Positions 1 to 18,969 are shown, numbered from the stretch's first letter. The stretch: DNA of 32,000 bases from an uncultured archaeon (GCA_964648855.1 CAZYLT010000022.1:1-32000), one strand, 5' to 3'. Program-made: numbers and translations. Notes: generated by a model from the letters alone, not told the origin.

Positions 1-2
1 AT

Positions 3-455
3 CCGGGAAACAGTACTTATCCTGACTTCAGGGTACGGCATCCGACCCTCCCCGAACTAGACCTCATCGACATGCTCAGGGCTCATGTGGTGGAGCTCGT
101 CAGGCAATGCTTCATCCACAACGTGCCACGTAAGGAGTCGCATCGCTACATCCGTCTGCTGATTCACAAACTTGCCCCCTTTCTTGAGTGGAAATACACC
201 GAGGGGAAACGGGGGAGGAAAGACTTCTGGCCCGATGCGGACCGAGAACTCAAGGACATCATTACAGAGATCGAGGTGGCTCAGTTCTTTGAAGGGCAAC
301 AATTCGTTGACATGTCAACTCGAACGCGGCATCCAGCAAAGGTTGCCTTGAACAAGGTGAACGATGTTGAGCTTCCAGTGGAGATTCTTGGATACAATCG
401 TCTGGCAGGATGGCTGCAGCTCAGGGCTTATGCCGCAAAATGGGGTGAATATTGA
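3..455 (+). CDS. Hypothetical protein, 5'-partial (runs off the window start); probably mobile-element encoded
   Basis: The frame of ORF 72..455 is open back to position 3 (PGNSTYPDFRVRHPTLPELDLID-M...). Codons are GC3-rich. No family recognised. Confidence 0.7.
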   Translation, partial: PGNSTYPDFRVRHPTLPELDLIDMLRAHVVELVRQCFIHNVPRKESHRYIRLLIHKLAPFLEWKYTEGKRGRKDFWPDADRELKDIITEIEVAQFFEGQQFVDMSTRTRHPAKVALNKVNDVELPVEILGYNRLAGWLQLRAYAAKWGEY

Positions 456-655
456 AACCCCCACTTGTGTGGAGTCTCCCCTCTTTAGGAATGGCGCTAG
501 GGATAGCACTGAAATCGTCGGTCTGCATGATAAGGCATCCGCCGCCCCCGCGTATATGGGAGAATGGCCTCGTTGCACCCAGTGGAACTAGAGTGCAAAG
601 GTGTTAGTAATCTCTTACTGGATTTTTTGAGAGGCAACATCCTAAGATTCGCTGT
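454..655 (-). ncRNA. Candidate structured RNA (or ssDNA structure) on the minus strand
   Basis: Consecutive stems at 454-478, 494-509, 533-570, 573-598 and 600-642. Their plus-strand C.A mismatches become G.U pairs on the minus strand. There is a GAGA tetraloop (611-614) and an ATATATAG TATA-like box at 683-676. Confidence 0.4.
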
Positions 656-765
656 TCTGTGTCAATTTCTTGAGTCTATATATGGTACCTTGGAAATAGG
701 AGAAAGACTCTTTGGGAAATAAGCAACATATCTCTTCTAACAAAGAATTAGCATAGAGAATGAAC

Positions 766-912
766 TCATTCTAAGCCAGTATTTTTGGCGTAGTCGTCTT
801 CATTGGATTCTGCTGCTGTAGTGTTTTTGTGCTGTTGAAGTTCGTCGCCTATCTATTCAAGCTCGGCAAGCTAATCTTCAGAAACAGTCTTGTCTGGACT
901 GGCCGAATCCAT
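766..912 (-). pseudogene. Small acidic ORF interrupted by two in-frame TAG codons
   Basis: ATG directly follows the TAG of 913..1149, with a GGGGTG SD-like motif upstream. It reads MDSASPDKTVSED*LAELE*IGDELQQHKNTTAAESNEDDYAKNTGLE*. Confidence 0.35.
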
Positions 913-1149
913 CTACGCCAGCACCCCCGTTGGCTCTTTTCCGACAGCCACATCTTCATCGGGCTGGCTGTCATGTTCTATTAGCACGTCCTTGATGCGT
1001 TGCCATTTTTCAAAAAATAGCATGGGAAACTCATCCTGGCTCAGTCCGGGATTGTGGGGAATCCCCATCTCATCCTCGTACTCTTCTTTCATCTGGTACC
1101 ATTTCGCCTTCGTCTCCGGCTTCATGTACCATCTGTCGTATTCTGGCAT
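913..1149 (-). CDS. Small putative DNA-binding protein (ribbon-helix-helix-like architecture), divergent from the wHTH regulator
   Basis: 78 aa with a short N-terminal strand (DRWYMKPET) and two amphipathic helices (KAKWYQMKEEY; SQDEFPMLFFEKW). GTAGGT SD-like motif upstream. Fold assignment is inference. Confidence 0.55.
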   Translation of the reverse strand: MPEYDRWYMKPETKAKWYQMKEEYEDEMGIPHNPGLSQDEFPMLFFEKWQRIKDVLIEHDSQPDEDVAVGKEPTGVLA

Positions 1150-1167
1150 GTGTTTAACCTACCGGAT

Positions 1168-1248
1168 TTCACGTTTTGATATGCATCAGATAGGATACAC
1201 CTACTAATAAGCCTAGCGCATATCCATATGTGAAAAACGCAACGTGAA
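1168..1248. promoter_or_regulatory. Candidate operator sites in the divergent intergenic region
   Basis: Inverted pair TTCACGTT (1168-1175) / AACGTGAA (1241-1248), palindrome CATAT-CC-ATATG (1219-1230), and TAGG-ATACA-CCTA (1191-1203). Confidence 0.35.
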
Positions 1249-1299
1249 TTTCTTGGGAAAAGGGTAAAGCGGAGATATGGTTCCATGTTATTGATTTTC

Positions 1300-1581
1300 A
1301 TGACGCTGGAACTTCTGGAGCAAACGGGTGCTCTGCGCACATTAGTCAAAGTGTATGAAAGGCCCCGATTTATTACGGAACTTGTGAGGTCCTCCATTAA
1401 TCCGGAAGGAATAGCAAGCCTTGATTCTATAATGAAAGTGCGCGAGAAACTAGGAGAGCTAGGCCTGATCCGCGAGGAGATGGAGGAAGGCGCCCGCCCA
1501 AAGACGTTCCTGGTCATCACCGAGAAGGGGAAAAAGGTAGCCGAGAGGCTCAGGGAGATACAGGAGATATTGGGGGATTAA
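1300..1581 (+). CDS. Winged helix-turn-helix transcriptional regulator (MarR/PadR/HxlR-like), copy 1
   Basis: Typical wHTH C-half LGELGLIREE...PKTFLVITEKGKKVAERL. ATG 1300 is preferred over 1285 by alignment with the paralogue. Confidence 0.85.
   Translation: MTLELLEQTGALRTLVKVYERPRFITELVRSSINPEGIASLDSIMKVREKLGELGLIREEMEEGARPKTFLVITEKGKKVAERLREIQEILGD
1462..1581 (+). repeat. Dispersed direct repeat copy 1 (3' half of the wHTH gene)
   Basis: 103/120 nt identical to 3955-4074 by manual codon alignment. Positions 1544-1569 match 6137-6162 at 24/26. Confidence 0.95.
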
Positions 1582-1582
1582 G

Positions 1583-2251
1583 TTGGAGGAAAAGAGAAGC
1601 CACAATAGGAATGCATCTGGAATTAGATCAGTTTTATTAGAAAAATATTGGTCTGCTAAAAATGGTCTAGGTCTGCTTGCAATTATGGGCATAACATTGG
1701 GGCTTGTTGCCTCTTCTAGCGAATTATGGTTATCAAATGAAAGCTCTCTATTTGCAAGATTCACATCTTTCGAACATTCAGTGTTTTACGTCATTATCAC
1801 GGGGATTATTCTCTTCATCTTGTATTACTATGACTGGAAAAGGACTGTAACTCAGAAGAGTTTGCTCAGAAATGCTTTCTATTCTCTTGCGTGTGCGCTT
1901 CTGGATTTATTCCAAATGTGGTTAGTTATCATGTTTTCCTTTCTCCTTCTAAATGAGCTCACTCTTTCAAATTTTCATCTGTATTGGAAACTTTTTTATC
2001 TCACTATGCCGCTCACAATCGGGGAGTTCGCCTTGTCTTCAGCTCTGACTAATCTTCTTCAAAAAGCCAAAAATTTGGAGAGAAGATCCCATGAGCATGA
2101 ACAGAAGATCGTCGAGACGGCCAAAAGCTTACAGGATGTCGTTGTGCCACCAGCACCAGATATCAAAGAGGACAGTGAAAGGCTCCAAGACTACCTTAGT
2201 AAAAAGAAGAGAGGGGAGAGAAGCATTGGAAACCGAACGGAAGAGAAATGA
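1583..2251 (+). CDS. Membrane protein (about 4 TM segments) with C-terminal coiled coil
   Basis: TTG start 1 nt after the wHTH stop, with a GGGGGA SD inside the wHTH 3' end. Four hydrophobic stretches, then LTNLLQKAKNLERRSHEHEQKIVETAKSLQ. Confidence 0.75.
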   Translation: MEEKRSHNRNASGIRSVLLEKYWSAKNGLGLLAIMGITLGLVASSSELWLSNESSLFARFTSFEHSVFYVIITGIILFILYYYDWKRTVTQKSLLRNAFYSLACALLDLFQMWLVIMFSFLLLNELTLSNFHLYWKLFYLTMPLTIGEFALSSALTNLLQKAKNLERRSHEHEQKIVETAKSLQDVVVPPAPDIKEDSERLQDYLSKKKRGERSIGNRTEEK

Positions 2252-3704
2252 AGAGATTGAAGGTATTCTTTCATCGTTGATTGAAACAACTGAGAGATTA
2301 GAAAATGTACAGAATGAAATTATGGAAGATAATTTGAATCCCATAATTGAAAAGATGAAAACTATCACAGATAGAATTCAGGTTCTTAGTGATTCGACCG
2401 GCCAAAACAAGGCTGTAATTGTTGAATTGCTTGATGATTTCCAGCAGTTCAGAGCAGATTTTGACTCTTGCAGCTCTAGATGCGGAGGAATTCCCAATGA
2501 AGAAACTGCAGAAGAGGTCAAGAAGCTATTTGATGATGTAGATGAATTGATTGATGATGGAAAAACCGACCAAGCGCTTGCATTAGCCTATGAACATAGA
2601 GTCAAGCTCAAAGATTCCTGGGATTATTGGATCAAGCTTGGGTCGAGATATAGCGGTGCCAATGAAAACGAAAAAGCAAAGAAGGCGTTCGAGCAGGCCA
2701 TAAAACTAAAGCCCGAGGAATTTCTTTCTCATTGTCAGTATAGTGGTCTGATTAAAGTAACTGAAGGCCCTGAGAAGGCATTATCCTATATCAAAGAATT
2801 CGTAAAGAGTGTGCCTTTGAGGGGGTGTCATGTCTTCTATAATGCACTGGGATGGTTATTAATGGATGTTGCAGAACCCAATGATGTAGAGGATATTGTT
2901 TCAAATATTACGAACCCCGATTCTCCCGAATGCACTCCCTGCGTCCAAGCATTTCTCTATTCCAGAGTAAACATGGATTCCAAAGCTATCTCGATAATTT
3001 CAGACCATGATGTTTCAGATTGTGCCATTTATCCTCTCGTTAAGACAGCCATCCACGCAAAAGCAGAGGTCAAAGAAGGCTTAGAAGATATGGTGAAGTC
3101 TGCAAATGTTAGCAAGGATCCAGACCCATTTGAAGTTAGCCTTCTAATTATGATTTTGCAGAATGTTGGTCGTTCTTTAGATTGCGATCCGACACTAAAA
3201 TTTGTGAAGAGAGTCAAAAAGAGATTCAAGTCAGAAAAAATACCTGAAGATAGGCAAGGAGCGTTGCATGAGTATTCTGCATACGCACTTATGGGTGCAG
3301 GGTGCAAGAATTTTGAATTCATCTCAAAACTCCAAGATATCGCATTAGAAACGCATGAGTGCTCATCGCTTCGTTATGATAGAATAATCTTGAAACTCAT
3401 GTCAAAGCAATACAATAAGGCAGCGGAAGAGGCCAGAGAGGCACTGGATAAATACGATGACGATGATTGGATTTTGCTGGCTTCAATTGACGCGATATCT
3501 CGTTCCGAGGAGCCGACAGATCTATCAAATCTCTATAAGAAGGCACTGGACATGAAGGAAATTACCACAAGCAAATACAGACTAATGGTCTTGAAGAATT
3601 CAGCGATAAGAATGGATAGCCCATTTCTCTCAGATATTGAAACCTTGCTCAAGAAGATTGGTGCCTCAGATGAGGATGCGTCTGGTAGTTCTGAAACTAA
3701 ATAA
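2226..3704 (+). CDS. TPR-repeat protein with N-terminal coiled coil, Cys-rich
   Basis: TPR pattern WDYWIKLGSRYSGANENEKAKKAFEQAIKLKPEE plus further helical repeats. TTG 2226 with GAGGGG SD is preferred to ATG 2091, which overlaps the upstream gene extensively. Confidence 0.8.
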   Translation: METERKRNEEIEGILSSLIETTERLENVQNEIMEDNLNPIIEKMKTITDRIQVLSDSTGQNKAVIVELLDDFQQFRADFDSCSSRCGGIPNEETAEEVKKLFDDVDELIDDGKTDQALALAYEHRVKLKDSWDYWIKLGSRYSGANENEKAKKAFEQAIKLKPEEFLSHCQYSGLIKVTEGPEKALSYIKEFVKSVPLRGCHVFYNALGWLLMDVAEPNDVEDIVSNITNPDSPECTPCVQAFLYSRVNMDSKAISIISDHDVSDCAIYPLVKTAIHAKAEVKEGLEDMVKSANVSKDPDPFEVSLLIMILQNVGRSLDCDPTLKFVKRVKKRFKSEKIPEDRQGALHEYSAYALMGAGCKNFEFISKLQDIALETHECSSLRYDRIILKLMSKQYNKAAEEAREALDKYDDDDWILLASIDAISRSEEPTDLSNLYKKALDMKEITTSKYRLMVLKNSAIRMDSPFLSDIETLLKKIGASDEDASGSSETK

Positions 3705-3780
3705 CCCTCACCTCATTTCCGATACTACCGTTGGGCAACCTATGATTTCGATGTGAACGGGTGATTCAAGGAGGTTTAGA

Positions 3781-4074
3781 ACGAAGCCTATTGCCAGAAC
3801 AAATGAAATACCGGGAGCTCTTCAACTGCTCATTTCACTTTATGAAGAGCATAAATACATCACATTAGTTCTGAAAAGCAGTAGTAATCCGAAAGGCTTC
3901 ATTTCCCAAACAGCCTTGTACGAAGCAAGACGCGAGCTAGGAGAGAAGGGTCTTGGCCTCATCCGCGAGGAGATGGAGGAGGGCGCCCGCCCCAAGACCT
4001 TCCTGGTCATCACCGAGAAGGGGAAGCGGGTCGCGGAGAAGCTCAAAGGGATTCAGGAGATATTGGAGGAATAG
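3781..4074 (+). CDS. Winged-helix regulator paralogue (copy 2) with non-canonical ACG start, or a start-loss pseudogene; not in the ORF track
   Basis: Open frame (T/M)KPIARTNEIPGALQLLISLYEEHKYITLVLKSSSNPKGFISQTALYEARRELGEKGLGLIREEMEEGARPKTFLVITEKGKRVAEKLKGIQEILEE aligns end to end with copy 1. AGGAGGT at 3769-3775 lies 5 nt before ACG. Confidence 0.8.
   Translation, partial: TKPIARTNEIPGALQLLISLYEEHKYITLVLKSSSNPKGFISQTALYEARRELGEKGLGLIREEMEEGARPKTFLVITEKGKRVAEKLKGIQEILEE
3955..4074 (+). repeat. Dispersed direct repeat copy 2 (3' half of the wHTH gene)
   Basis: The first 24 codons encode a peptide identical to copy 1, with only synonymous third-position differences. Confidence 0.95.
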
Positions 4075-4297
4075 CAAGATAGGTGCATTTCTCCATGAAT
4101 TATGTGGATAATTCAAATATCAGTGGAAATATGGCTAAGGAGCATTTTGAACTCATATGAGGACCATATTTACACCCGCAAATAACATAAGGGCGCATAG
4201 AATAGTAAGTTTATTAGAAAGAAGGTGGAGCTAGGCATATGTCGAAGATTGATTTTGAATATCATCGCCTTTTTACAGATAACCGGGGTGTTAGAGT

Positions 4298-4675
4298 ATG
4301 ACCGAGAAGAAAATAATAGCCAATTTCAACTATGAATACTCCCCTGAATACAAGGAGTATTATGCAACAGGTGCTAGAGGCGGAATAATTAACGGATATC
4401 ATTATCATCTGGAATTCTATAGAGAGACACAACATATCTCTACTCAGCAACAATTGGTGGAAACTTCAGAGGGAAGAAGGGTTGAAGATATTTCCGACGT
4501 AGAACCCCCAGTTATTCAGAGAGAATTCTTGTTTGGCCTGAACCTCTCATTTCATGCTGCTTTTGAACTATATCAGTGGCTAGGAGCAAAATTATCCGAT
4601 ATGGCCAATATACAATCGCGGACTCTTGAAGCACTAAGAGAGTCTGTGCCCACGGGTGAAACTATGGATGAATGA
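4298..4675 (+). CDS. DUF3467-like protein
   Basis: Motifs YATGARGG..., LEFYRE, QREFLFGLNLSFHAAFELYQWL resemble DUF3467 (Y-A-x-G ... F-Y ... S-x-x-x-A-x-x-L-x-x-W-L). GGGGTG SD upstream. Confidence 0.65.
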   Translation: MTEKKIIANFNYEYSPEYKEYYATGARGGIINGYHYHLEFYRETQHISTQQQLVETSEGRRVEDISDVEPPVIQREFLFGLNLSFHAAFELYQWLGAKLSDMANIQSRTLEALRESVPTGETMDE

Positions 4676-5174
4676 GCAGGCATCAATATATCCTAGAGAG
4701 GAAGATACGAGCAGGGAGCCAACCCTTACCCCCCTGACAAAAGGATATACTTCATCGGAAAGTTTTCTCATCATAACTGATTCTGATAGGGATCAAACAC
4801 ATATTGCTCGCTATAGCGATGATGCTTTGTTCCGTAGACCTCTTGATACCAGCACAATCATTTTGGAGGAAGTCAAAAACCTGAAGAAAAAGGTAGCTGG
4901 ATTAGAGGAAGCGGTTGAGGTTCTTAGAAGTGACATGGACAGTCATTTAGGTGTCACAAGGAGCTACTACAAAGACCTTTCTCAAGCCGAGATAAAGGAA
5001 ATAATCAAAGATCATATCGAAGAAGAGGGGAACTTTTGGCCGGATGAGCTCGCTGAAGAATACAACCTTAGCGTCTTGGCTGTCATGGAAGCAATTGACG
5101 AGCTTGTCGAGGAAGGGGTTCTTGAGAGGAAGAACAAGAATGACGTACCCAGACGAACTACCAGGGGAAATTGA
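4668..5174 (+). CDS. Coiled-coil plus C-terminal winged-helix protein (antitoxin/regulator-like)
   Basis: Coiled coil ILEEVKNLKKKVAGLEEAV and HTH EIKEIIKDHIEEEGNFWPDELAEEYNLSVLAVMEAIDELVEEGVL. ATG 4668 with GGGTGA SD overlaps the upstream stop. Confidence 0.75.
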   Translation: MNEQASIYPREEDTSREPTLTPLTKGYTSSESFLIITDSDRDQTHIARYSDDALFRRPLDTSTIILEEVKNLKKKVAGLEEAVEVLRSDMDSHLGVTRSYYKDLSQAEIKEIIKDHIEEEGNFWPDELAEEYNLSVLAVMEAIDELVEEGVLERKNKNDVPRRTTRGN

Positions 5175-5526
5175 GGCAGAAGTTGTTACCATTGCGTGTA
5201 GGCAGACAAGCCCCCGGCAACTGCCACATGAAGCAGTCGATCGCGATGTATATTTTGAAAGGCGCGTAATTCTCATCTTTCCTGAACCTTATGGAAAAAA
5301 GGAGACCTCTTGATTGAATGGTGAAATCTCCGGAAAACACGGCCCTTTTGAGTGTGTAGCAGCAAGATATGAGAAGCTTAAACGAAGGGGATTGCAGCCA
5401 CCTGGAACGCATCATTATCAAGAACATACGATAGAAGGAGTACGAATTAGAGAGATTTTCCCTTATGGGCCCAGAAAATCGCATATGAAAACCCCACAAG
5501 AAATTCTATTAGAAAGCGACAACTAG
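5140..5526 (+). pseudogene. ~128-codon ORF split by a single in-frame TGA (5311-5313); possible toxin-like gene
   Basis: ORFs 5044..5313 and 5314..5526 are in the same frame and abut. ATG 5140 overlaps the upstream gene. Reads ...PYGKKETS*LNGEISGK...AARYEKLKRRGLQPPGTHHYQEH... Confidence 0.55.
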
Positions 5527-5663
5527 GCCACGCTGTAATTCATAAGTTTCATTCTTTCGATTCTAAGTACATACACCAAAAATAGTACCTGAATCCCATT
5601 CTCTGAGGTTCATATCGGAAGAACACCTAAGTGCTAGTGTAGCTAATTGCCAACCGTGGTACT

Positions 5664-6131
5664 ATGGAGATTCAGGAACAACAACCAGTATTCAGCCGGT
5701 CTGAGAAGTTTGAAATCAACGATATCGAGTTCAGAGAGATTACGATAAACAATTACAGGCTACAAGCAGAGGGTAGATCATGGACACGCTTCGTGCTTAG
5801 ACTATCCTTCATCGGCGGAGCCTGGATGGAAAAATGGAGACGGTTTGGTGCAAAATTGCTCGCGGCAGGGATACTGATGGTGACGTTCCCTCTATTTCTG
5901 GGCCCAGTCCTAGGTCTGGGTCTCTTATTCTGGTATTATAGTGGATCCCAGATTCTTTCCGTGATGTTCGTCTTTGTAGGTATGGCATTGATTGCCATCT
6001 GGGTTGTATTCAAGAGGGAGGCAATCAAGATCTACACGCCATCCGAGACCTTCAAGATAGAAGGGTCAGCAGGCTTCATAGAGGCGGTCTGGGGGGCAAT
6101 CATGGCACGTCAAGCGTCAAGGGATATCTAA
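5664..6131 (+). CDS. Membrane protein (2 TM) with flanking beta-rich, PH-like segments
   Basis: Two hydrophobic helices are inserted between REITINNYRLQAE...FVLRLSFI and IKIYTPSETFKIEG...FIEAVWGAI. The PH-like fold is inference. Confidence 0.75.
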   Translation: MEIQEQQPVFSRSEKFEINDIEFREITINNYRLQAEGRSWTRFVLRLSFIGGAWMEKWRRFGAKLLAAGILMVTFPLFLGPVLGLGLLFWYYSGSQILSVMFVFVGMALIAIWVVFKREAIKIYTPSETFKIEGSAGFIEAVWGAIMARQASRDI

Positions 6132-6136
6132 AACCA

Positions 6137-6171
6137 AGAGGCTCAGGGAGATTCACGAGATACTAGGAGGG
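6137..6171 (+). repeat. Third, truncated copy of the wHTH 3' end
   Basis: AGAGGCTCAGGGAGAT is identical to 1544-1559. It translates as RLREIHEILGG versus RLREIQEILGD, and supplies the GGAGG SD for 6181. Confidence 0.8.
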
Positions 6172-6180
6172 AAATGGACA

Positions 6181-6822
6181 TTGTATGTAATAGCTCGTTT
6201 GTATGGCAATCGTGAAAAACAGATAGAATGGCATCAAGGATTGAGAGCGCCCCTCAAGAATTTGATTGATAGTGGTGTCATAAAACGTTTTGTTATGACC
6301 TATCATGGAGATAAGCTCTATCTCTGTCTTGAGTCGCTCGAATTGATTGAAGATACTCTCGAACATTTAATGGTAGCCAGTTCATTCAGTGCCATCACCA
6401 ACTATCTGATTGAGAATGTTGGAGAAAAAAGCATTGAGACATCTAACTATGAATTCGAGGTTCGGGACTCAATTCTTGCCACACTGAGGAAAAAAGGAGT
6501 CCAAAATCCCTCAGATGCCTTTGTTTCTGAACTGACTAAAAGGCAAATCGATAATGCATCGCGTGGATCCAAAGCGGCTATGGAAATACTCTCACAAGAC
6601 CCAGCTGATATTTCTGACTGGAATTCACTGACATACGCGGCCTTTAAGAAATGCCATCCCCTAAATGAAGGTTGGTTCATCTCTGATTCAGCGCATTTTT
6701 GCTTCAATTCACTAGGATTGTCAAATCAGGAGGAAGTTGCCTGTAGAAGCCTATTCGAAGTAATTAACAGTGTGAATAGCGCTGTGAGAAATCTTTTTGA
6801 CCGGGAAGATTGGAAAACATAG
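6181..6822 (+). CDS. Stand-alone protein resembling the lantibiotic dehydratase C-terminal (Lant_dehydr_C) domain
   Basis: FVMTYHGDKLYLCL (cf. FFxRY...HLRLR), NYEFE (cf. YEPE), and AHFCFNSLGLSNQEE (cf. HMxxNRLGxxxxxE). Confidence 0.55.
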   Translation: MYVIARLYGNREKQIEWHQGLRAPLKNLIDSGVIKRFVMTYHGDKLYLCLESLELIEDTLEHLMVASSFSAITNYLIENVGEKSIETSNYEFEVRDSILATLRKKGVQNPSDAFVSELTKRQIDNASRGSKAAMEILSQDPADISDWNSLTYAAFKKCHPLNEGWFISDSAHFCFNSLGLSNQEEVACRSLFEVINSVNSAVRNLFDREDWKT

Positions 6823-6878
6823 AAATTAGAGAAATGTTAAGAAACGAAGAAGAATGACTACAGCTCTTCATCGATGTC

Positions 6879-7620
6879 TTATTCAGGAGGAGTAACTCGG
6901 ACTGTTTCAGTAGAGCGAAGCGTCCACTTGTTATCATATTTGACAAATACCTTCAAAGTGAAATCAGATGACGTACTAAGACTCCCGGTATGTCGAACTC
7001 TTAGTACCGGATTCAAAAAATTCGTATTCTGACAGTTGATTATTAATCTGTGTTTTGGCCGAATTTGTTCAGTCACCATTCGGAGGTCCTCTTCAAGACG
7101 AATTTTTACTGTGGGGGGGCATTCAAACTTCATTTTATACTCATTCAAACCCGGTCCATTTTCTGCTTCGATATACAAGACCATAGGATACCATCCGATA
7201 ATTGTGGGAAATGAGCCAAGCTCATAACCACAAGAACGTCGAAAAAACATCCTAATGTTGACACATTTCTGGAATTATCACATCTACGCTCGCTGCAATG
7301 GTCCTTTGGTCTGAGCGAAACAATGCAAATCACAAGCAACTCTACATAGCTACGTGTATTGTATTTCTTCTCTGTGCTGCCTCCAATGTCTTTGCCTTTC
7401 TTAGGAATATCGAATTCATTCTATACCAGACAATATATACCAGCAATCCGCTTTTCATTCCAAATTTCATTGCCTGTGGAATTATCAGACCCATTCTCTT
7501 ATTCGCGATTTTCTTTCGCAGGATTTCCCAACTTCCGTAAACTAAGGCCCAAATAGATAATCTGCTGCGATATTAAGTCAGCTGCAAAATAATCTCCAGC
7601 GCGGCGCTCTCCCTCAACAC
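6879..7620 (-). pseudogene. Degraded gene; intact beta-rich C-terminal 123 codons (6879..7250) with fragmented upstream part
   Basis: The upstream minus-strand frame gives protein-like fragments (LSIWALVYGSWEILRKKIANKRMGLIIPQ...; RTIAASVDVIIPE) separated by stops and a frame change. Confidence 0.35.
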
Positions 7621-7747
7621 TAAGTATTATATGAAAGACATTGGGGTTCGTAAATGAATACGGTTTCCGTTCTACTTGATTCACTATGAAAATTAAAGAA
7701 CAATTCACGACAATCAGGCTTTTCACTTCATGATATGGTGAATAGAA

Positions 7748-8407
7748 ATGGAGTCTCACACACAGGAGAACGAATTCGGAACAGAATCTCATTCAGCAAG
7801 GCTAGAGTCACCTAAGAAATACTTGGAATACGGACTATGTGGATCTATTTTCATGTTCGTTGGTTTTGTGGTTAGTCTATTCCTAGCGTATAGGGAAATA
7901 TTGCTTCCTGAAGGTGGAATAATTCTGATACCAGTATCAAGTGGCTTGACCACTGTGTTCGCTGTCCTGTATAATGGTCTATTCTGGCAAGCTTTCAAAG
8001 CATTCAACGACAAATCCCCTAACAAGTACGCAACCATAGCCTCGGAGGGATTCTTGCTTCTGCTTGTCGTTGCTCTTCTGCAAATTGCCCTTGGTGTTAT
8101 TGATCCAGTAATTGGGCTGTTTGTTGTCAATATAGCTCGTGTTTTCGTGTGGACGATAGTTGGACTCACTCTTTGGACCGCAGCCTCCAACTCGACACGG
8201 CCAATATTCTTTGAATTTGCAGCGTTCGTGATTCCAGTTGCGAGCATTCTTCATTTCATCACAAACTCGATTCCACTACTAATGGAGGACAGGCATTTCT
8301 ACACGGCTCTGTTTGGCACCTATTTGTATAACATCGGTGACTACGTCTTCATCGTAGCTGTATTCTTTCTAGTATTCTGGGTCAAGTACAGGGAATACCC
8401 ACGCTAA
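7748..8407 (+). CDS. Multi-pass membrane protein, hypothetical
   Basis: About 6 hydrophobic segments; GGTGA SD upstream. Confidence 0.75.
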   Translation: MESHTQENEFGTESHSARLESPKKYLEYGLCGSIFMFVGFVVSLFLAYREILLPEGGIILIPVSSGLTTVFAVLYNGLFWQAFKAFNDKSPNKYATIASEGFLLLLVVALLQIALGVIDPVIGLFVVNIARVFVWTIVGLTLWTAASNSTRPIFFEFAAFVIPVASILHFITNSIPLLMEDRHFYTALFGTYLYNIGDYVFIVAVFFLVFWVKYREYPR

Positions 8408-8503
8408 CGACATATATTGCCAAGATTTGAGCTAACAGCTGGATAGTTATACAGTGTAGTTTAAAACTGATGTCCGACAACGAATTTACATTGGGGGTAA
8501 GCT

Positions 8504-9442
8504 GTGTTGCAGAAAGAACAACAATTGTTCGCATCTCGGTTCAAGAAGCGCATGGACGCGGCTTCACAGGAGCGAGTGCGGATTGTTATCAAAGAGCAAT
8601 ATAAGGACGCATTTGAGGTCTTGGAAGACTGCGAGAATGCAGGTCTAATTCCCGGAATTGTGGGTCCTCCTGGAGTTGGTAAGACTCTACTTCTACGTGC
8701 CTATGCGGAGAAGAGTAAGAGAAGTTTTCACTGGATTACGGGTGACGAAGGTGTGAGACCATCTCATTTGATTGGCTCATTCAATCCTGCACTTGTATTG
8801 CAGAAGGGATTCAATCTCGAGTCATTTGAACCCGGACCGCTGCTGAAATCTATGGTCTTTGGCTCAGTCTTTGGTCTAAATGAGGCCAATCGATTGCCTG
8901 AATATGTTCAAAATTCTCTTCTGGAACCCTTCGAAGAGCGGTCAGCCAATGTCCAGCGGTTAGGCAGAATCCAGGCTGATGAGGACTTCTTCCCCGTACT
9001 TAGCATGAATCCTGAAGAGATGGCAGGCGCTCACAGGCTAAGCGAGGCGCTAAGAGACCGGATTAGAGTATGGATAAAGCTTGGCTATCCACGAAAGGCC
9101 ACGGAAATCGAAATCGTGAAAGTGAACTGTCCGGAGTATAATTTATCAGATCATGTGCTGGGCCAGATTTACTCGCTTGTTTCGGCCACTCGGTCCTCAA
9201 CTGATATTGAGATTCCCGCATCAATTCGAGCTGGTATTTCAATAGCCCGATTGAGTGCTGAGATGGCTAAGAGGCAAAAGATGAAGGAGATAGACCACAA
9301 TACTCTCTCCACGGCTGCGCATTATGTCTTGGTAGGTGCACTTCGATTCAGACCTGGCGTAGATTCTGAACCGGCGGTGAACGCATTGGTGAGACGGGTG
9401 CTTGGAAGCAAGAGGAGCGCTGAGAGTGGCAAGTCAACCTAA
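8504..9442 (+). CDS. MoxR-family (CoxD/CbbQ/GvpN-like) AAA+ ATPase
   Basis: Walker A GPPGVGKT, GPLL motif, Walker B variant FGLNEANR, SMNP sensor 1, LSEALRDR arginine finger, ASIR sensor 2. Confidence 0.9.
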   Translation: MLQKEQQLFASRFKKRMDAASQERVRIVIKEQYKDAFEVLEDCENAGLIPGIVGPPGVGKTLLLRAYAEKSKRSFHWITGDEGVRPSHLIGSFNPALVLQKGFNLESFEPGPLLKSMVFGSVFGLNEANRLPEYVQNSLLEPFEERSANVQRLGRIQADEDFFPVLSMNPEEMAGAHRLSEALRDRIRVWIKLGYPRKATEIEIVKVNCPEYNLSDHVLGQIYSLVSATRSSTDIEIPASIRAGISIARLSAEMAKRQKMKEIDHNTLSTAAHYVLVGALRFRPGVDSEPAVNALVRRVLGSKRSAESGKST

Positions 9443-13964: not shown

Positions 13965-14201
13965 TTGGTCAAGGTCAGGAATGTTCAGGCCGGGCTCAAC
14001 ACCCGAACCAAAATTCTAAAGCATTTGAATTTCAAGAGATGGACTTCAGCTGGTGAGATTGCAGAGAAGATTGATGTCACCTATAATACCATTCTCTATC
14101 ATCTGAAGAATATGCAGGCTGAAGGTACTGTAACAAAACAGAAAGACGGTCCTGGCTGGAAACTTATTCAGACAGGACAGACTGAGTTGACTGAATACTG
14201 A
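13965..14201 (+). CDS. Small winged-helix (ArsR/HTH_11-like) protein with C-terminal PIP-box-like tail
   Basis: TRTKILKHL...SAGEIAEKIDVTYNTILYHLKNMQAEGTV...WKL; ends in QTELTEY. Confidence 0.8.
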   Translation: MVKVRNVQAGLNTRTKILKHLNFKRWTSAGEIAEKIDVTYNTILYHLKNMQAEGTVTKQKDGPGWKLIQTGQTELTEY

Positions 14202-14300
14202 ACACAATATAACTTGCATTATTTGTGTGAAAAGACTCTCAGGTTATCCGAAGCGTAAATCCTATAGCGGGTTTCGCTTCCAGTTAGTATTGCTGAACAG

Positions 14301-14711
14301 ATGATGAATGAAGATGAGCTATTTGAGTTCTGTGAAGAATGGTTGTCGACTTGGACGGGGAACCAGCCGGAAGAGTTGATTAGATTCTATTCGGAAGATG
14401 CCCTATACGTTGACCCTGCGCATCGAGAAGGACTCAAGGGACATGAGGATATTCTTCAATATTTTGAGAGATTGTTAAGGGTCTATCAGGATTGGAGATG
14501 GAAGCCAATCGAGGTGTTTCCAATAAAAACTGGTGGAATTGTCAAATGGGAATGTGAGATTCCTGTTGGTCAAGAGGTTCTGCACGAGGTTGGAATCGAC
14601 ATTGTTGAAATTGAAGATGGTAAGATAACACGCAATGAGGTCTATTTTGATAGAACACGCCTGCTCGCTGCGGTGGAGAGGAAGAAGCAGCTAGAGCGAT
14701 TACGATTTTGA
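14301..14711 (+). CDS. NTF2/SnoaL-like family protein
   Basis: FYSEDALYVDP, LKGHEDILQYF and GIDIVEIEDGKITRNEVYFD. Confidence 0.85.
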   Translation: MMNEDELFEFCEEWLSTWTGNQPEELIRFYSEDALYVDPAHREGLKGHEDILQYFERLLRVYQDWRWKPIEVFPIKTGGIVKWECEIPVGQEVLHEVGIDIVEIEDGKITRNEVYFDRTRLLAAVERKKQLERLRF

Positions 14712-14718
14712 TACCATG

Positions 14719-15663
14719 TCAATCCAATTCATAAATAGCATCCGCATTTTTCCAATACATTTTATCTAATACCCGTCTGGGCAGATCAAGTCCATTGATG
14801 TAAGTGCCTCCTTTGCCAACAGTATCCTGATCCACAAATGGCAAAGGCACACCCCGAGCATCGGTCTCCCAGATCATTCTCTCAGTGTAGTGTCTACCTT
14901 CGTAGTAATCTTCGTTCATAGTTCTGGCAACACAATCGGTACCATAGAGTATTCTGTCCGAATGTTTGATTATAATTTCTCTGGCCTTCTCGGGGGCTTT
15001 GCCCAGCTCTCTCGCCATCCATCTAGCACTACTGGTGTCAACATGTAGGTTTGGATATTGGTCAAACATTCTGGCGAGATTGTCTAGACGATGGGGCTCT
15101 GCTTGAGCACCAAAATGCGCCTGTTGAAAGACTACGTTACTGCTCCTCTTCAGTCTGTTTTCAAACTGCTCTAGGTGTTCATCCTTTGTGCCATATTGAT
15201 TGCTGTCTGAATATCGATTCTCAAAATAGGTATCAGGGTCTGCAATGTGAATCAGAAGTGGCAATTCATGTTCTGCAAGTGCATGAAATAATGGGTCAAA
15301 AATTGGGCTGTCTACTGAAGGGACCTTCTCTTTTTCTAGTCTATCAGACCAGAATGGTGCAAAGTGCATTTTTACCAGACTGTATCCATCTTCGCGAAGG
15401 TGAGCCACTTCTTTCATAGACGGTTCGGGTCCTTCAGTGAACAATCTCCATCCTGACATGTATTTGGCAAATACGAACCGACCCGGATACATATCCTCAT
15501 AGGCATCAATTTCATCCCCATGCACTATTAGGATGGATTTCTCTGTCCCATATTTTTTGCCTACTTCCACGAATAGCTTGAGCGCCTCCAGTTCGATTAC
15601 ATGTGCATGAGAGTCAAATATCGGCCCAGTATATTTGTAATCGATTCTCGGATATTTCATCAA
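14719..15663 (-). CDS. Amidohydrolase_2 family metal-dependent hydrolase
   Basis: DSHAH, LLIHIADP, QAHFG, DTSS and DRILYGTD motifs. Confidence 0.85.
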   Translation of the reverse strand: MMKYPRIDYKYTGPIFDSHAHVIELEALKLFVEVGKKYGTEKSILIVHGDEIDAYEDMYPGRFVFAKYMSGWRLFTEGPEPSMKEVAHLREDGYSLVKMHFAPFWSDRLEKEKVPSVDSPIFDPLFHALAEHELPLLIHIADPDTYFENRYSDSNQYGTKDEHLEQFENRLKRSSNVVFQQAHFGAQAEPHRLDNLARMFDQYPNLHVDTSSARWMARELGKAPEKAREIIIKHSDRILYGTDCVARTMNEDYYEGRHYTERMIWETDARGVPLPFVDQDTVGKGGTYINGLDLPRRVLDKMYWKNADAIYELD

Positions 15664-15802
15664 ACACCCCTGCCAGAATCTCCTTGAAAACTCTGTTCCT
15701 CGCGGTAAGGATAATATTCTGATTGATAACAGAAGACCTTTTTAGTCGAGTTCATTTGCTATAATCTAACCATTCGTGAATGGTTTGGGAGATATAACAA
15801 TA

Positions 15803-16495
15803 ATGAAACGCGCGCTAAACGTGATTCTTGCAGTAGCAATTGTAACAATGTTCCTGGTTTCGCCGGTAGCTGCAGCAACCTCACAAGGATTGGAATGGGG
15901 TGTGGCTAGCGGTGATCGATTCGATTTCACTATGTCCAGTACTGATGAAGATGTTCCAAGTGAAGATATATACCTCAACATAACGGATATGCCTGCTCTG
16001 GCTATTCCTGACCCTCTTGATGATTGGAATGCCATTCCGGAGCCTGATATTGGGTTCTGGTGGGAAAATGGAACTAGCATGGGACTTTCAACACTGATAT
16101 TCCTTGGCATATATTTCGTTGGTGCAAAATTCGCTTTACCTGTAGGTAATTTCACTCTTTTGCAGAGCTTGCTCGCACCAGAACTGACCGGTGAAGACAT
16201 CACTTCTGCAGGCGGCCTTTGGACCGTAGAATGGAGCATGGATACCACAGCAACTGAAGAGGCTAAGATTACTGCTGCTTATTCAACATCGGACGGATTT
16301 CTTGCAGAGTACAAAATTGAGACATGGAGCACCCTAAATGATACACTCCTAGAGTCCATTGAAGTGACAAGGGCGACAATTCCGGGCGGAGGCGTGGATG
16401 ACATATTGCAGCTTCTAGAGGATAACATCCTCTACGTTGGTATAGGCGTTGCTGTGATTGTGATCATCGGTCTTGTTGTATGTAAACGTAAGTAG
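15803..16495 (+). CDS. Secreted/surface protein with signal peptide and C-terminal TM anchor
   Basis: Signal peptide MKRALNVILAV...PVAAA, LEWGVASGDRFDF, YSTSDGFL, and a C-terminal hydrophobic helix plus KRK. Confidence 0.8.
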   Translation: MKRALNVILAVAIVTMFLVSPVAAATSQGLEWGVASGDRFDFTMSSTDEDVPSEDIYLNITDMPALAIPDPLDDWNAIPEPDIGFWWENGTSMGLSTLIFLGIYFVGAKFALPVGNFTLLQSLLAPELTGEDITSAGGLWTVEWSMDTTATEEAKITAAYSTSDGFLAEYKIETWSTLNDTLLESIEVTRATIPGGGVDDILQLLEDNILYVGIGVAVIVIIGLVVCKRK

Positions 16496-16504
16496 TTTTT
16501 AATT

Positions 16505-16540
16505 GAGGGGGAACTCCCCTCTTGAACTTTTTTTGTTTTA
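16505..16540 (+). terminator. Hairpin plus T-tract terminator
   Basis: GAGGGG-GAACT-CCCCTC followed by TTTTTTTGTTTT just after the stop at 16495. Confidence 0.6.
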
Positions 16541-16596
16541 TTTTGTCCGGAGTACTTTTTTGTGCAAAATATCTATCTTGTATTTGATAGTTGATC

Positions 16597-17340
16597 ATGA
16601 AAAGCAGGACGACTAAGAATTATGTGGTATTGGGCATTGTATCAGTTCTGATACTGCAGGTATGTGTACTTCCAGCGGTCGCATTGCGACATTGGTGGGG
16701 CGTTGAAGATGGCGATGAATTCGAATTTGAGTTGTATGTCAAGTCTTCAGGCTATACTGAAATAGATGATGAGGTTCTGCTCAGGGTTACAAACACACCC
16801 AATCTCACAGACACATACAGCTCTATCAGTAGAATTCCAATTCTCGAAGTTGAACAATCCTTTCTGAATGGCACACAGCTCAATCTTGATGGGCCTTGGA
16901 ACAAGGCACTGGAGCACTTAGCCTATCCGGTGGGCGACTGGTGGCTGCTTTCTACCTACATCGAAGATGAAGATATGGTGGATTACGACATCATTGAGGA
17001 CAGTGACTTTTGGGGGTACGAATGGAGAAACATTTTCGAAATCAGCGTTACCACTGTACAAGCGTCACTTCGAGCAGTATATCTCAAAGAAGATGGGTTC
17101 TTGTCACACTATGTTTATAGGTTATTCAACACGGACACCAATGAAACGTTAGAGTATCGAGAAGCATCGAGAATGAATATCGTGCTTGGTATTGACAGGG
17201 TACTGACTACCATGGGCCCTCCTCTAGCAATCACTACGATTGCTCTTACAATCTTGTTAGTGGCATATAGATTTAGATCTCGATTATTAAAGAACAAGGA
17301 TAGGGATATGCAGAAGAAACATAGTCCTCTAGTTAGTTAG
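16597..17340 (+). CDS. Secreted/surface protein, paralogue of 15803..16495
   Basis: Signal peptide, HWWGVEDGDEFEF, YPVGDW (cf. LPVGNF), YLKEDGFL and a C-terminal TM. Confidence 0.8.
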   Translation: MKSRTTKNYVVLGIVSVLILQVCVLPAVALRHWWGVEDGDEFEFELYVKSSGYTEIDDEVLLRVTNTPNLTDTYSSISRIPILEVEQSFLNGTQLNLDGPWNKALEHLAYPVGDWWLLSTYIEDEDMVDYDIIEDSDFWGYEWRNIFEISVTTVQASLRAVYLKEDGFLSHYVYRLFNTDTNETLEYREASRMNIVLGIDRVLTTMGPPLAITTIALTILLVAYRFRSRLLKNKDRDMQKKHSPLVS

Positions 17341-18969
17341 TAATCTAGGCACTGCACTTCTAGCAAAGAAGAGCTCCACAACAACTAAAACGCCCTGAAT
17401 TCCTAGCCCAACTACTATCTGACTTGTGAGAAATATTCCTAATAGCAATCCAAGCAGAGGTATTAGTCCAACTGCAGATGCAACCATGATTGCAATCAGT
17501 GTTGCTTTTTGATTATTCACAGGGTTGACGGCAACTGTCCTCCCTCCACCAACAATTCGAAATAGGATACCACCTACTATCAATGCAAGTCCATATCCAA
17601 GAGGAACCTGGATAACTGGAATGAGAATCGCAAATGGAGTAAAGGGAGTGCCTACTAAGAAGAGGACTGACACAACGACCATGAAGAAAGTGTACGTAGC
17701 CGTAAATAATGTGGCCTTAGCTTTGAGGTTCATCATGCTACTCAAGGGGAGCCCATCATAAACCGAAGCACCTTGAGTATCTACTCCCAGCAGACCTGTC
17801 ACACTGATTCCTGAGAAGCTTTGCACCATGACCATGAGGGTTAGAATTGTTGCCAAACTGACTGTGCCCCCAGCAACTTGGGCAAACGTTGGTATCCAAG
17901 CCACTAGCATGATCAGTGGAAATATCATGATGGCTAGAGACCCCAAGTCGCGCGTTGCCAATCTGATGTCTTTCCTTATAATTGCCAATATGGGAGTAGA
18001 AATCTTTAGTGGCCTCCCCATCGACTCATAGTCAATAGTGGTTTCGATTCCCCCTAGTACTGTTCGTCTCAACTCTCTTCTGGCTATCCGATAGCCGCGA
18101 ATTGCGAATACGGAGTACAACGCAGTAGAGCAGATCGAGAGCAATGCAATTCCCGCTGAAACTAAGAAGCCGTATGTTGCAATTCCCGTTAGCAATCCCA
18201 TATTGAATGGGAATAGAACACTGAACAACACGTTGACCGCAATGCCGTACTGATGCGATAGACTGGTGAGGATATCAACCAAGGTGGGCAAGTAATTCCC
18301 AACCGAATAGACAGCAATGAATCCTACCAAGAGCATAGCTCCCGCCAGCACCCGCACAACTGTGGACATGATAGACCCGGGTTGTTCAAGTGATTTCTTG
18401 TGATACCATTTGGCGACGAGTATGAGAGTTGTGAATGAAGCTAGCACTGTTACCAGACAAGAGAAGAATGCAGCTATACTTGCAACAGGGCCCATAAATA
18501 TCAAGAAACCCAAAGGGAAGACCGTTAGAATGGCGATAGATGGTCCTGCAAAGGTACGCATGAATGCAAGAAAGATAACGTCCTCAAGGTCTTCTTTTGA
18601 AATGGGCAACATGCCAGGAAACGAAGCAACCCCTGACATAAAGAAACCAGATGTTCCTAATAGATTCAGGAAGAATACCAAGACAAAGCTAAGCAGAAGA
18701 AAGGAACCGAAGCTGACTGTCAAGGAAATTAATGGGGATTGAGCTGGGTCATCAAATAGAATGAGAGCAATTGATATCGCAGCGATGGTGACAACCAGAA
18801 AGGTTGTAAAAACCATACTAATCGTGCTACCTCTCTTTGCCCTGCTCATAATCCGTTCAGGATCTTCTTTAGCTCTTGCACGAAAGGATGGGTTAGAATT
18901 TAGTTGAGATCTGAATCTCGCTTCGCGTATGATAGTGCCTGCAAGTTTCCATTTCTTGCTGAAATTCAT
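17329..18969 (-). CDS. ABC-2 type exporter permease (multi-TM)
   Basis: More than 10 TM segments, AIIRKDIRLATRD motif and two LP-[IL]-S motifs; coupled by ATGA overlap to the ABC ATPase. Confidence 0.8.
   Translation of the reverse strand: MNFSKKWKLAGTIIREARFRSQLNSNPSFRARAKEDPERIMSRAKRGSTISMVFTTFLVVTIAAISIALILFDDPAQSPLISLTVSFGSFLLLSFVLVFFLNLLGTSGFFMSGVASFPGMLPISKEDLEDVIFLAFMRTFAGPSIAILTVFPLGFLIFMGPVASIAAFFSCLVTVLASFTTLILVAKWYHKKSLEQPGSIMSTVVRVLAGAMLLVGFIAVYSVGNYLPTLVDILTSLSHQYGIAVNVLFSVLFPFNMGLLTGIATYGFLVSAGIALLSICSTALYSVFAIRGYRIARRELRRTVLGGIETTIDYESMGRPLKISTPILAIIRKDIRLATRDLGSLAIMIFPLIMLVAWIPTFAQVAGGTVSLATILTLMVMVQSFSGISVTGLLGVDTQGASVYDGLPLSSMMNLKAKATLFTATYTFFMVVVSVLFLVGTPFTPFAILIPVIQVPLGYGLALIVGGILFRIVGGGRTVAVNPVNNQKATLIAIMVASAVGLIPLLGLLLGIFLTSQIVVGLGIQGVLVVVELFFARSAVPRLLTN

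Follow-up and report, generated by a model that had tools for sequence, protein, structure and literature searches.

What does it mean for the end of one small regulator gene to recur within a few kilobases, each time before different genes? The question is raised by a 32,000-nt stretch of DNA (GCA_964648855.1, CAZYLT010000022.1:1-32000; hereafter the window, on contig C22) from an uncultured archaeon of the Candidatus Thorarchaeota (Asgard), in which an intact gene for a winged helix-turn-helix (wHTH) protein is followed by a second and a third copy of its 3′ part, here called the tail. The reading favoured below, to which an even chance is given, is that the conserved 3′ third of the gene (~60-120 nt) is a recurrent recombination junction in mobile, defence-rich islands of Thorarchaeota. 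It is the best explanation because 3′ remnants of the gene are found in excess, their edges cluster, cores shared between genera have unrelated flanks, a tail and a stub bound an insertion or deletion (indel), and the context is that of an island.

Copies of the tail in the window

A repeat finder run on the window pairs nucleotides 1459-1580 with 3952-4073 (86% identity over 122 nt) and places 1541-1574, 4034-4067 and 6134-6167 in one three-member family. An exact recount reproduced the numbers of a preliminary description of this DNA: 103 of 120 nt are identical between 1462-1581 and 3955-4074, as are 65 of the opening 69 nt, and since both tails encode the same peptide there, GLIREEMEEGARPKTFLVITEKG, all four nucleotide changes are synonymous. 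The third copy, a stub at 6134-6167, agrees with copy 1 at 24 of 26 nt and with copy 2 at 21 of 26, and its own frame encodes KRLREIHEILGG.

That the repeat is a chance similarity or an artefact of assembly or binning carries a negligible probability. When the tail was compared with the whole 3.1 Mb assembly, the top two non-self matches were copy 2 (E 5e-36) and the stub (E 3.8e-4), both on the strand of tail 1 and within 5 kb, and as all remaining matches had E ≥ 0.03, chance similarity is excluded. Some oddities of the contigs would suit an artefact, in that C22 begins within a repeat shared with contig C4 and contig C16 stops exactly at the island junction described below, both of which suggest strain heterogeneity in the sample. 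The copies, however, stand in different reading contexts, tails 1 and 2 are 14% divergent and thus not an assembly duplicate, and independent metagenome-assembled genomes (MAGs) from other studies show the same architecture. An explanation by chance or artefact is therefore effectively refuted already, including the assembly artefact that the preliminary description had named as a danger to its proposal.

The intact copy 1 was modelled with AlphaFold2 (AF2) at a pLDDT of 90.3. The model contains helices H1-H3, with the recognition helix at residues 46-58, a two-strand wing at 62-78 and a C-terminal helix at 80-97, which are the three helices, β-hairpin wing and C-terminal helix of a wHTH fold; from this topology, the tail is predicted to encode the wing and the final helix. 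A profile of the wHTH family finds PDB entry 2pg4 with E 4.5e-6 and MarR/PadR chains with E 1e-3 to 1e-2, and copy 1 reaches the cut-off of no single Pfam wHTH family (among ArnR1-like_WHD, HTH_45, PadR and HxlR the best score is 18.4 bits, with a gathering cut-off of 26).

Copy 2 differs from the bare 3′ end that the preliminary description counted three times, as it is a full-length diverged paralogue, with a frame open from 3757 (alternative start of the range, 3781) and homologous to copy 1 throughout. Because no ATG, GTG or TTG lies upstream of 3916, it is either a start-less pseudogene or a gene with a non-canonical start, for which ACG at 3781 or ATT at 3790 are possible. The divergence of the two copies is mosaic, not uniform as in the ordinary duplication against which the proposal had been set: the 5′ 55 codons are 44% identical in nucleotides and 35% in amino acids (aa), and the 3′ 40 codons 86% and 85%, respectively. 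Among codons for the same amino acid, 11 of 19 differ in the head and 9 of 34 in the tail (4 of 23 in the first 23 tail codons), and in tails compared between genomes the share is 50-60%. The common history of tails 1 and 2 is therefore more recent than that of the heads.

Tails, stubs and cargo across Thorarchaeota

The family was followed by profile searches of 86 family genomes, backed by tblastn and blastn of fetched loci (genomes, contigs, loci and protein families are numbered with G, C, L and F; the source assembly is G000). These genomes hold about 13 full-length close relatives, at least 14 stubs with only the 3′ end and a single 5′-only fragment (G025), and in the window and at least eight other Thorarchaeota genomes the tail forms a junction before mostly unrelated genes. 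Besides the window, stubs were met on G000:C4, G003:C43, G003:C51 (three), G006:C25, G031:C9, G031:C14, G034:C361 (two) and in G071 (four), often as same-strand pairs or behind a full gene, 1-10 kb apart; direct repeats drawn from the 3′ end of the gene, one copy intact and another partial, are found in the window and in G006. The left edges cluster, with about ten stubs starting at profile positions 13-17, which correspond to codons ~66-73 in the wing loop, and the type I tails (the window pair, G031:C14 and G031:C9) beginning at GLIREEMEE. The type II copies, five in G003 and two in G034, share 61-78 nt at 96-100% identity, and yet these MAGs belong to different genera and come from different studies; counted from the last Leu codon, most pairs cease to be similar at -72 or -57 on one side and at +4 to +6 on the other, and the flanks beyond the shared core are unrelated. 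Tail 2 itself is 85% identical to the stub on G031:C14, of genus g6, whereas collinear DNA of G001, from the same genus as the window, is only 80% identical. A miniature inverted-repeat transposable element was considered for the type II core and rejected, the terminal inverted match (7/10 by eye) being weak and no target duplication present.

The remnants can also be read as the leavings of ordinary tandem paralogous operons, in which wHTH (PadR/MarR-like) genes and their membrane partners would stand side by side, gene conversion would have homogenised the 3′ halves, the stubs would be neutral debris and the tail would have played no role in the arrival of cargo. Copy 2, a full paralogue, suits this account, as does the tight coupling of the wHTH gene to a membrane-protein gene, which starts 1-8 nt after the wHTH stop codon in the window, in G006 and on G031:C9; in every pair compared the protein is also best conserved over its tail, and the breakpoints between G071 and G079 lie away from the stub. 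Random decay, however, predicts 5′ and 3′ remnants alike, and at junctions with unrelated DNA at least 14 of the latter are seen against one of the former. Left edges that cluster, some of them identical in different contexts and genera, also tell against it, as do the near-identical cores with unrelated flanks shared between genera and the indel in G006 that is bounded by a tail and a stub. This account is the main rival to a recombination junction and is judged rather unlikely.

The indel emerges from a comparison between genera, in which orthologues are 46-77% identical. On G003:C22 the wHTH gene is followed directly by F26-F25-F24, and in G006 it is followed by a 170-aa protein gene, F5, a stub and then F26-F25-F24, so that on gene order the difference between the two is an indel bounded by tail and stub. 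The same two loci (L046, G003:C22, 10315-19656; L044, G006:C25, 3708-9711) carry a conserved defence block behind the wHTH gene, composed of genes for a 284-aa protein, an N6/N4 methylase (77% aa identity between the genera), GmrSD_N, a HEPN RiboL-PSP protein, a MORC-like HATPase and a Dam-type methylase.

A constant gene behind the tail, which the preliminary description had set against its own proposal, is not what the genomes show, because the first genes downstream of 14 tails represent no fewer than 11 unrelated families. Some cargo does recur. The membrane protein and tetratricopeptide repeat (TPR) pair behind copy 1 is also found behind stub 26 on G003:C51 (34% and 28% aa identity), and the membrane protein F5 follows the wHTH gene in five loci, namely in the window, G006 (52% aa identity), G007, G026:C44 and G031:C9; in G006, as in the window, a tail stub comes next. 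Other cargo includes McrB, McrC and a methylase, as well as Schlafen AlbA_2, a TRADD-N-associated transmembrane (TM) protein, an HNH protein and a nucleoside-deoxyribosyltransferase-like protein, the last a weak match (E 0.008) below the Pfam cut-off. The expectation of defence-enriched variable neighbours is thus borne out elsewhere, where defence genes are frequent, but not in the window, where no cargo protein has a defence match in PADLOC and Pfam matches are weak or missing. One unit also carries captured DNA: stub 25 (G003:C51) is joined at its left edge to codon 23 of a glycyl-radical-enzyme gene, which is intact and has the same upstream methylase in G106, G028 and G003:C40, the captured copy being 88% identical to that on C40. 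In this region (L042, G003:C51:85000-104999, at 13976-18930; compared with L137, L138 and L139), McrB-McrC (3 kb) lies between blocks that are adjacent on G106:C12, and the whole block with the truncated start of the glycyl-radical-enzyme gene is a second copy of the G003 C40 locus, again at 88% identity.

How a recombination junction could have produced such loci can be outlined as follows. Incoming DNA with its own tail copy, be it a related module led by a regulator or a cassette cut out of another array, would join a resident tail by the single crossover of a circular intermediate (Campbell type), and the crossover could proceed by homologous recombination or by a tyrosine integrase acting in trans. 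Each event would duplicate the tail around the insert, with the intact gene before the new cargo and the displaced copy behind it; in older copies the start or the 5′ part would subsequently disappear, which would yield the series from full gene through start-less gene to stub, and the three units of the window would be products of such joining. It is in the causal role of the tail itself, the circular intermediate and the enzyme that we infer beyond the observed pattern.

Cargo of the window

Three units can be told apart in the window (Table 1): wHTH copy 1 with the membrane and TPR proteins, the start-less copy 2 with the 125-aa and 172-aa proteins through to F5, and the stub with a 213-aa open reading frame (ORF). 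Stub 3 begins 3 nt past the stop codon of F5; it is in frame with the 213-aa ORF with no stop codon between them, and no start codon lies upstream of the TTG at 6181. Labels given to this cargo in the preliminary description have fared unevenly. 'Lant_dehydr_C-like' and 'toxin-like' found no support in Pfam or PADLOC, and 'DUF3467' for the 125-aa protein is matched by a weak lead in the protein atlas (score 0.85) and by nothing stronger. The 172-aa ORF has a C-terminal HTH under the Pfam cut-off, the 213-aa ORF has no match in Pfam, PADLOC or the protein atlas, and a marginal Cas11 match among ten window proteins searched with PADLOC was judged to be noise.

The 78-aa gene F2, divergent from copy 1, has homologues adjoining the full wHTH gene in G006, G007, G003:C22 and G004 and on the metagenome contigs L071 and L072; its product resembles a ribbon-helix-helix protein by eye and has no Pfam match. 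These two contigs were the only close relatives among 62 loci of a metagenome scan, the others being distant wHTH proteins, largely on short contigs, and no wHTH relative was found in the viral contigs searched.

Table 1. Features of the window, and integrase genes near tails in other genomes (locations are window nucleotides unless a genome is named)
Feature	Location	Strand	Basis or remark
wHTH copy 1, intact 98-aa winged-helix regulator	1285..1581	+	ORF, AF2 model, PDB profile match
Tail 1, conserved 3′ segment (wing and C-terminal helix)	1459..1581	+	repeats, AF2 model
wHTH copy 2, full-length diverged paralogue without canonical start	3757..4074	+	ORF, alignment to copy 1
Tail 2	3952..4074	+	86% identical to tail 1, 85% to G031:C14 stub
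Stub 3, final ~11 wHTH codons	6134..6167	+	repeat family, genome search
78-aa gene, family F2, divergent from copy 1	913..1149	-	conserved partner of full-length wHTH genes
Cargo 1, 222-aa three-TM protein	1583-2251	+	TM segments, G003:C51 homologue
Cargo 1, TPR protein, true start uncertain	2091-3704	+	TPR Pfam matches
Cargo 2, ORFs of 125 aa, 172 aa and 70 aa	4298..5526	+	ORF calls
Membrane protein F5	5664..6131	+	recurs downstream of wHTH family
Cargo 3, 213-aa ORF	6181..6822	+	ORF call
Remnant of giant ORFan gene, family F1, internally deleted, off contig start	3..455	+	G031:C14 match
123-aa ORF at right island end	6879..7250	-	ORF call; no Pfam match
Right island junction	7268..7273		TCTGGA, also last 6 nt of C16
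F0 tandem pair	15776-16495 and 16591-17340		F0 also at L050 6536-7816, L041 5743-6903, L052, L055
F10 integrase	G003:C51		3.6 kb from stub 25
F10 integrase, C-terminal fragment	G003:C51		0.6 kb from third stub
F10 integrase, block with ParB-like gene	G007		6.8 kb from full wHTH gene
F10 integrase	G004		7.6 kb from full wHTH gene

The island and candidate recombinases

The three units lie within a larger insertion. From 7268 onward the window aligns collinearly with G001, of the same genus, at 80% identity, and on G001:C21 the homologue of the end of C16 runs straight into the homologue of C22:7268 onward, within one intact ORF. In the source assembly this membrane-protein gene is split, the 5′ part ending contig C16 (56368-56567) and the 3′ part resuming at 7274 (window 7268-7540). 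Since G001 is uninterrupted across the junction and TCTGGA is present at both ends here, C22:1-7267 is, by sequence comparison, an island of at least 7.3 kb inside a membrane-protein gene, missing from the sister species G001. The island is missing there as a whole, but the junction is the membrane-protein gene with its TCTGGA and not a tail. That C16 breaks exactly at this point suggests a sample of cells with and without the island. No Rfam match was found in window positions 1-9000, and tRNA genes as possible targets are missing from the window and from most loci.

The left end of the island lies beyond the contig, as C22 begins inside a giant-gene repeat shared with C4. The F1 remnant at this end matches residues 212-307 and 1484-1535 of an 1882-aa protein on G031:C14, and C22:1-271 is 93% identical to C4:1-271, from where the similarity jumps to C4:4080-4253. 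Both contigs start at the same point in the giant F1 gene, and an internal deletion has removed ~3.8 kb from the window copy. Genes like F1 are met again close to wHTH tails on G000:C4, G031:C14 and G030:C21, and a 280-nt piece of F1 is kept at 67-77% in many family genomes. The giant F1 protein has no Pfam match; it was considered as a recombinase, and the likeness of its C-terminus to tyrosine-recombinase motifs, seen by eye, was left unsupported. F0 and F9, which recur near tails, were dismissed as recombinases, being secreted or membrane proteins by sequence. The F0 family of secreted or membrane proteins, recurrent near wHTH islands, has a conserved C-terminal multi-TM module with the motif VYQMVRYY.

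Complete or partial genes for tyrosine integrases of the F10 type stand at distances of 0.6-8 kb from tails, two of them in G003 and one each in G007 and G004. None adjoins an intact wHTH gene in G006, G003:C22, G007 or G004, the nearest being 6.8 kb away. On G004:C27 (L047), an F10-type integrase ORF at 17812-18735 overlaps a predicted tRNA-Ser(GCT) at 18587-18674, which recalls integrase genes partitioned by integration into a tRNA gene. In assembly G000 not even a XerA-like gene was found (PF00589, E ≤ 0.01), and five related genomes have 1-8 matches each.

The preliminary description had likened the arrangement to an integron, with the tail serving both as recombination anchor and as expression platform. 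A dedicated platform of this kind would use the tail as attachment site and expression signal, an unrecognised recombinase and promoter-less cassettes, and it is held to be very unlikely. Short units of one or two genes between stubs do occur, in G071 (1.1-1.3 kb) and G006 (1.3 kb), the cargo varies extremely from tail to tail and is rich in defence genes, the gene next downstream runs in the direction of the tail in about 16 of 21 cases, and in window copies 1 and 3 the last tail codons contain a Shine-Dalgarno (SD)-like motif whose spacing suits the next start. Against this, no locus has an integrase beside the intact gene and the assembly has none, and the tail is no attC-like hairpin: DNA folds of tails 1 and 2, a type II tail and a stub, on both strands, gave z from -1.3 to +1.1 relative to shuffles. 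The analogy thus falls short on the integrase and on the attC-like structure, both of them defining properties of an integron-like platform. Cargo is moreover convergent in G034, on G071:C69 and in G004, one unit carries a truncated captured gene, and co-orientation does not exceed the same-strand bias that neighbouring genes show anyway. The notion of an expression platform is also not supported by the spacing, which suits two of the three window copies and is not conserved elsewhere; the gap to the next start is 224 nt behind copy 2, and on G003:C51 it is 65 nt from the stub to a homologous membrane gene. What stands of the earlier proposal is the tail as a junction before different, mostly unrelated genes, here and in at least eight other genomes, with defence genes often among the neighbours elsewhere. 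The other possibility it named, that related elements joined one after another and left scars, is the better fit, given an island missing from the sister species and F10 integrases near tails in three genomes.

Several observations weigh against a recombination junction. First, the island contains no recombinase, and a search of the entire assembly, which is 94.6% complete, for PF00589 and PF16795 gave nothing at E ≤ 0.01. Next, a sensitive blastn found no tail copy beside the nearby integrases, and no integrase lies within the segments bounded by two tails, that is, the window units and the stub pairs of G003:C51, G034 and G071. On G003:C22 cargo stands behind the tail and yet there is no stub. 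No clean pair of an empty and an occupied site was found for a single cassette, the comparison of G003:C22 with G006 being one between genera; G071 and G079 were tried as such a pair and set aside as uninformative, their similarity ending 146 nt before the stub. The conservation of the tail in nucleotides is also in part that of the protein, as tails are ~70% and heads ~45% identical in amino acids between genomes. Finally, the MAGs that supply most loci are fragmented, and related genomes cannot count as independent samples.

Known systems and what the tail may mean

The closest likeness is to elements of Archaea that integrate into the 3′-distal parts of protein genes, one of them for a regulator, and stack in tandem by using the same site again (Krupovic et al. 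2019, PMC6563490). Shared with them are the direct repeats from the 3′ end of a gene, the intact gene in front with a partial copy behind, the serial re-use of the site and the absence of the island from a sister genome (PMC6563490). In contrast to those elements, no tail-bounded unit here contains an integrase and units go down to one or two genes, the repeats are 60-120 nt long rather than of a median ~45 nt or less, the targeted gene is carried by the mobile islands and is not a host gene, and one displaced copy is a whole paralogue (PMC6563490).

The Thorarchaeota arrays also resemble integrons in having short variable accessory or defence units, split by a repeated site-like sequence, behind a fixed gene. 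Integrons, with IntI, attI and arrays of attC cassettes, have reportedly been found in Archaea, by Ghaly et al. in 2022. Unlike them, the loci described here have no IntI and no hairpin attC, their repeats are coding, and their cargo may run convergently, comprise several genes or be a piece of one. With tycheposons they share serial integration that leaves partial 3′ ends of the target between cargo blocks, many of which lack an integrase. Tycheposon-type islands, said to have been described in Prochlorococcus by Hackl et al. in 2023, reportedly target a tRNA or tmRNA gene and carry defined integrase families. Here, the repeat is instead the tail of a protein gene.

Two other parallels concern the regulator and the swapping of modules. 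Regulators of the BrxR/CapW type, which are wHTH proteins, precede diverse defence systems, and in the present family, too, one regulator stands before unrelated ones, among them restriction-modification with GmrSD and HEPN, and McrBC; the protein is, however, only 98 aa long and has no WYL domain. To our knowledge, no arrays of 3′ stubs have been described for BrxR/CapW-type regulators. Polymorphic toxin loci (contact-dependent inhibition, CDI, and Rhs) hold arrays of orphan modules, in which a conserved piece precedes the variable C-terminal domain of the same protein. Common to both is a short, conserved stretch of coding sequence before alternative modules that homologous recombination can swap, whereas here it is the end of a gene that is conserved and the set of downstream genes that varies.

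The gain and shuffling of accessory and defence genes are little known in Asgard archaea, and the tail provides a marker, searchable by sequence, for the junctions of variable DNA in Thorarchaeota. The data on tails show a short DNA segment that has been exchanged between genera, and recombination at the end of the regulator gene would, under the hypothesis preferred here, swap what the regulator stands before. A bolder extension, regarded as improbable, is that Thorarchaeota own a cassette-exchange system that uses the last 60-120 nt of a regulator gene as its site and an F10-type integrase in trans. Integrase-less units of one to several genes, often for defence and sometimes captured chromosomal fragments, may then be inserted, stacked and moved between genera, and such a system, if real, would be an Asgard functional counterpart of integrons and tycheposons with a protein-coding attachment site. 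If a dedicated enzyme exists, the loci would represent a new class of cassette system; if it does not, they would still document clearly how mobile islands evolve as mosaics in a lineage that has been little studied.

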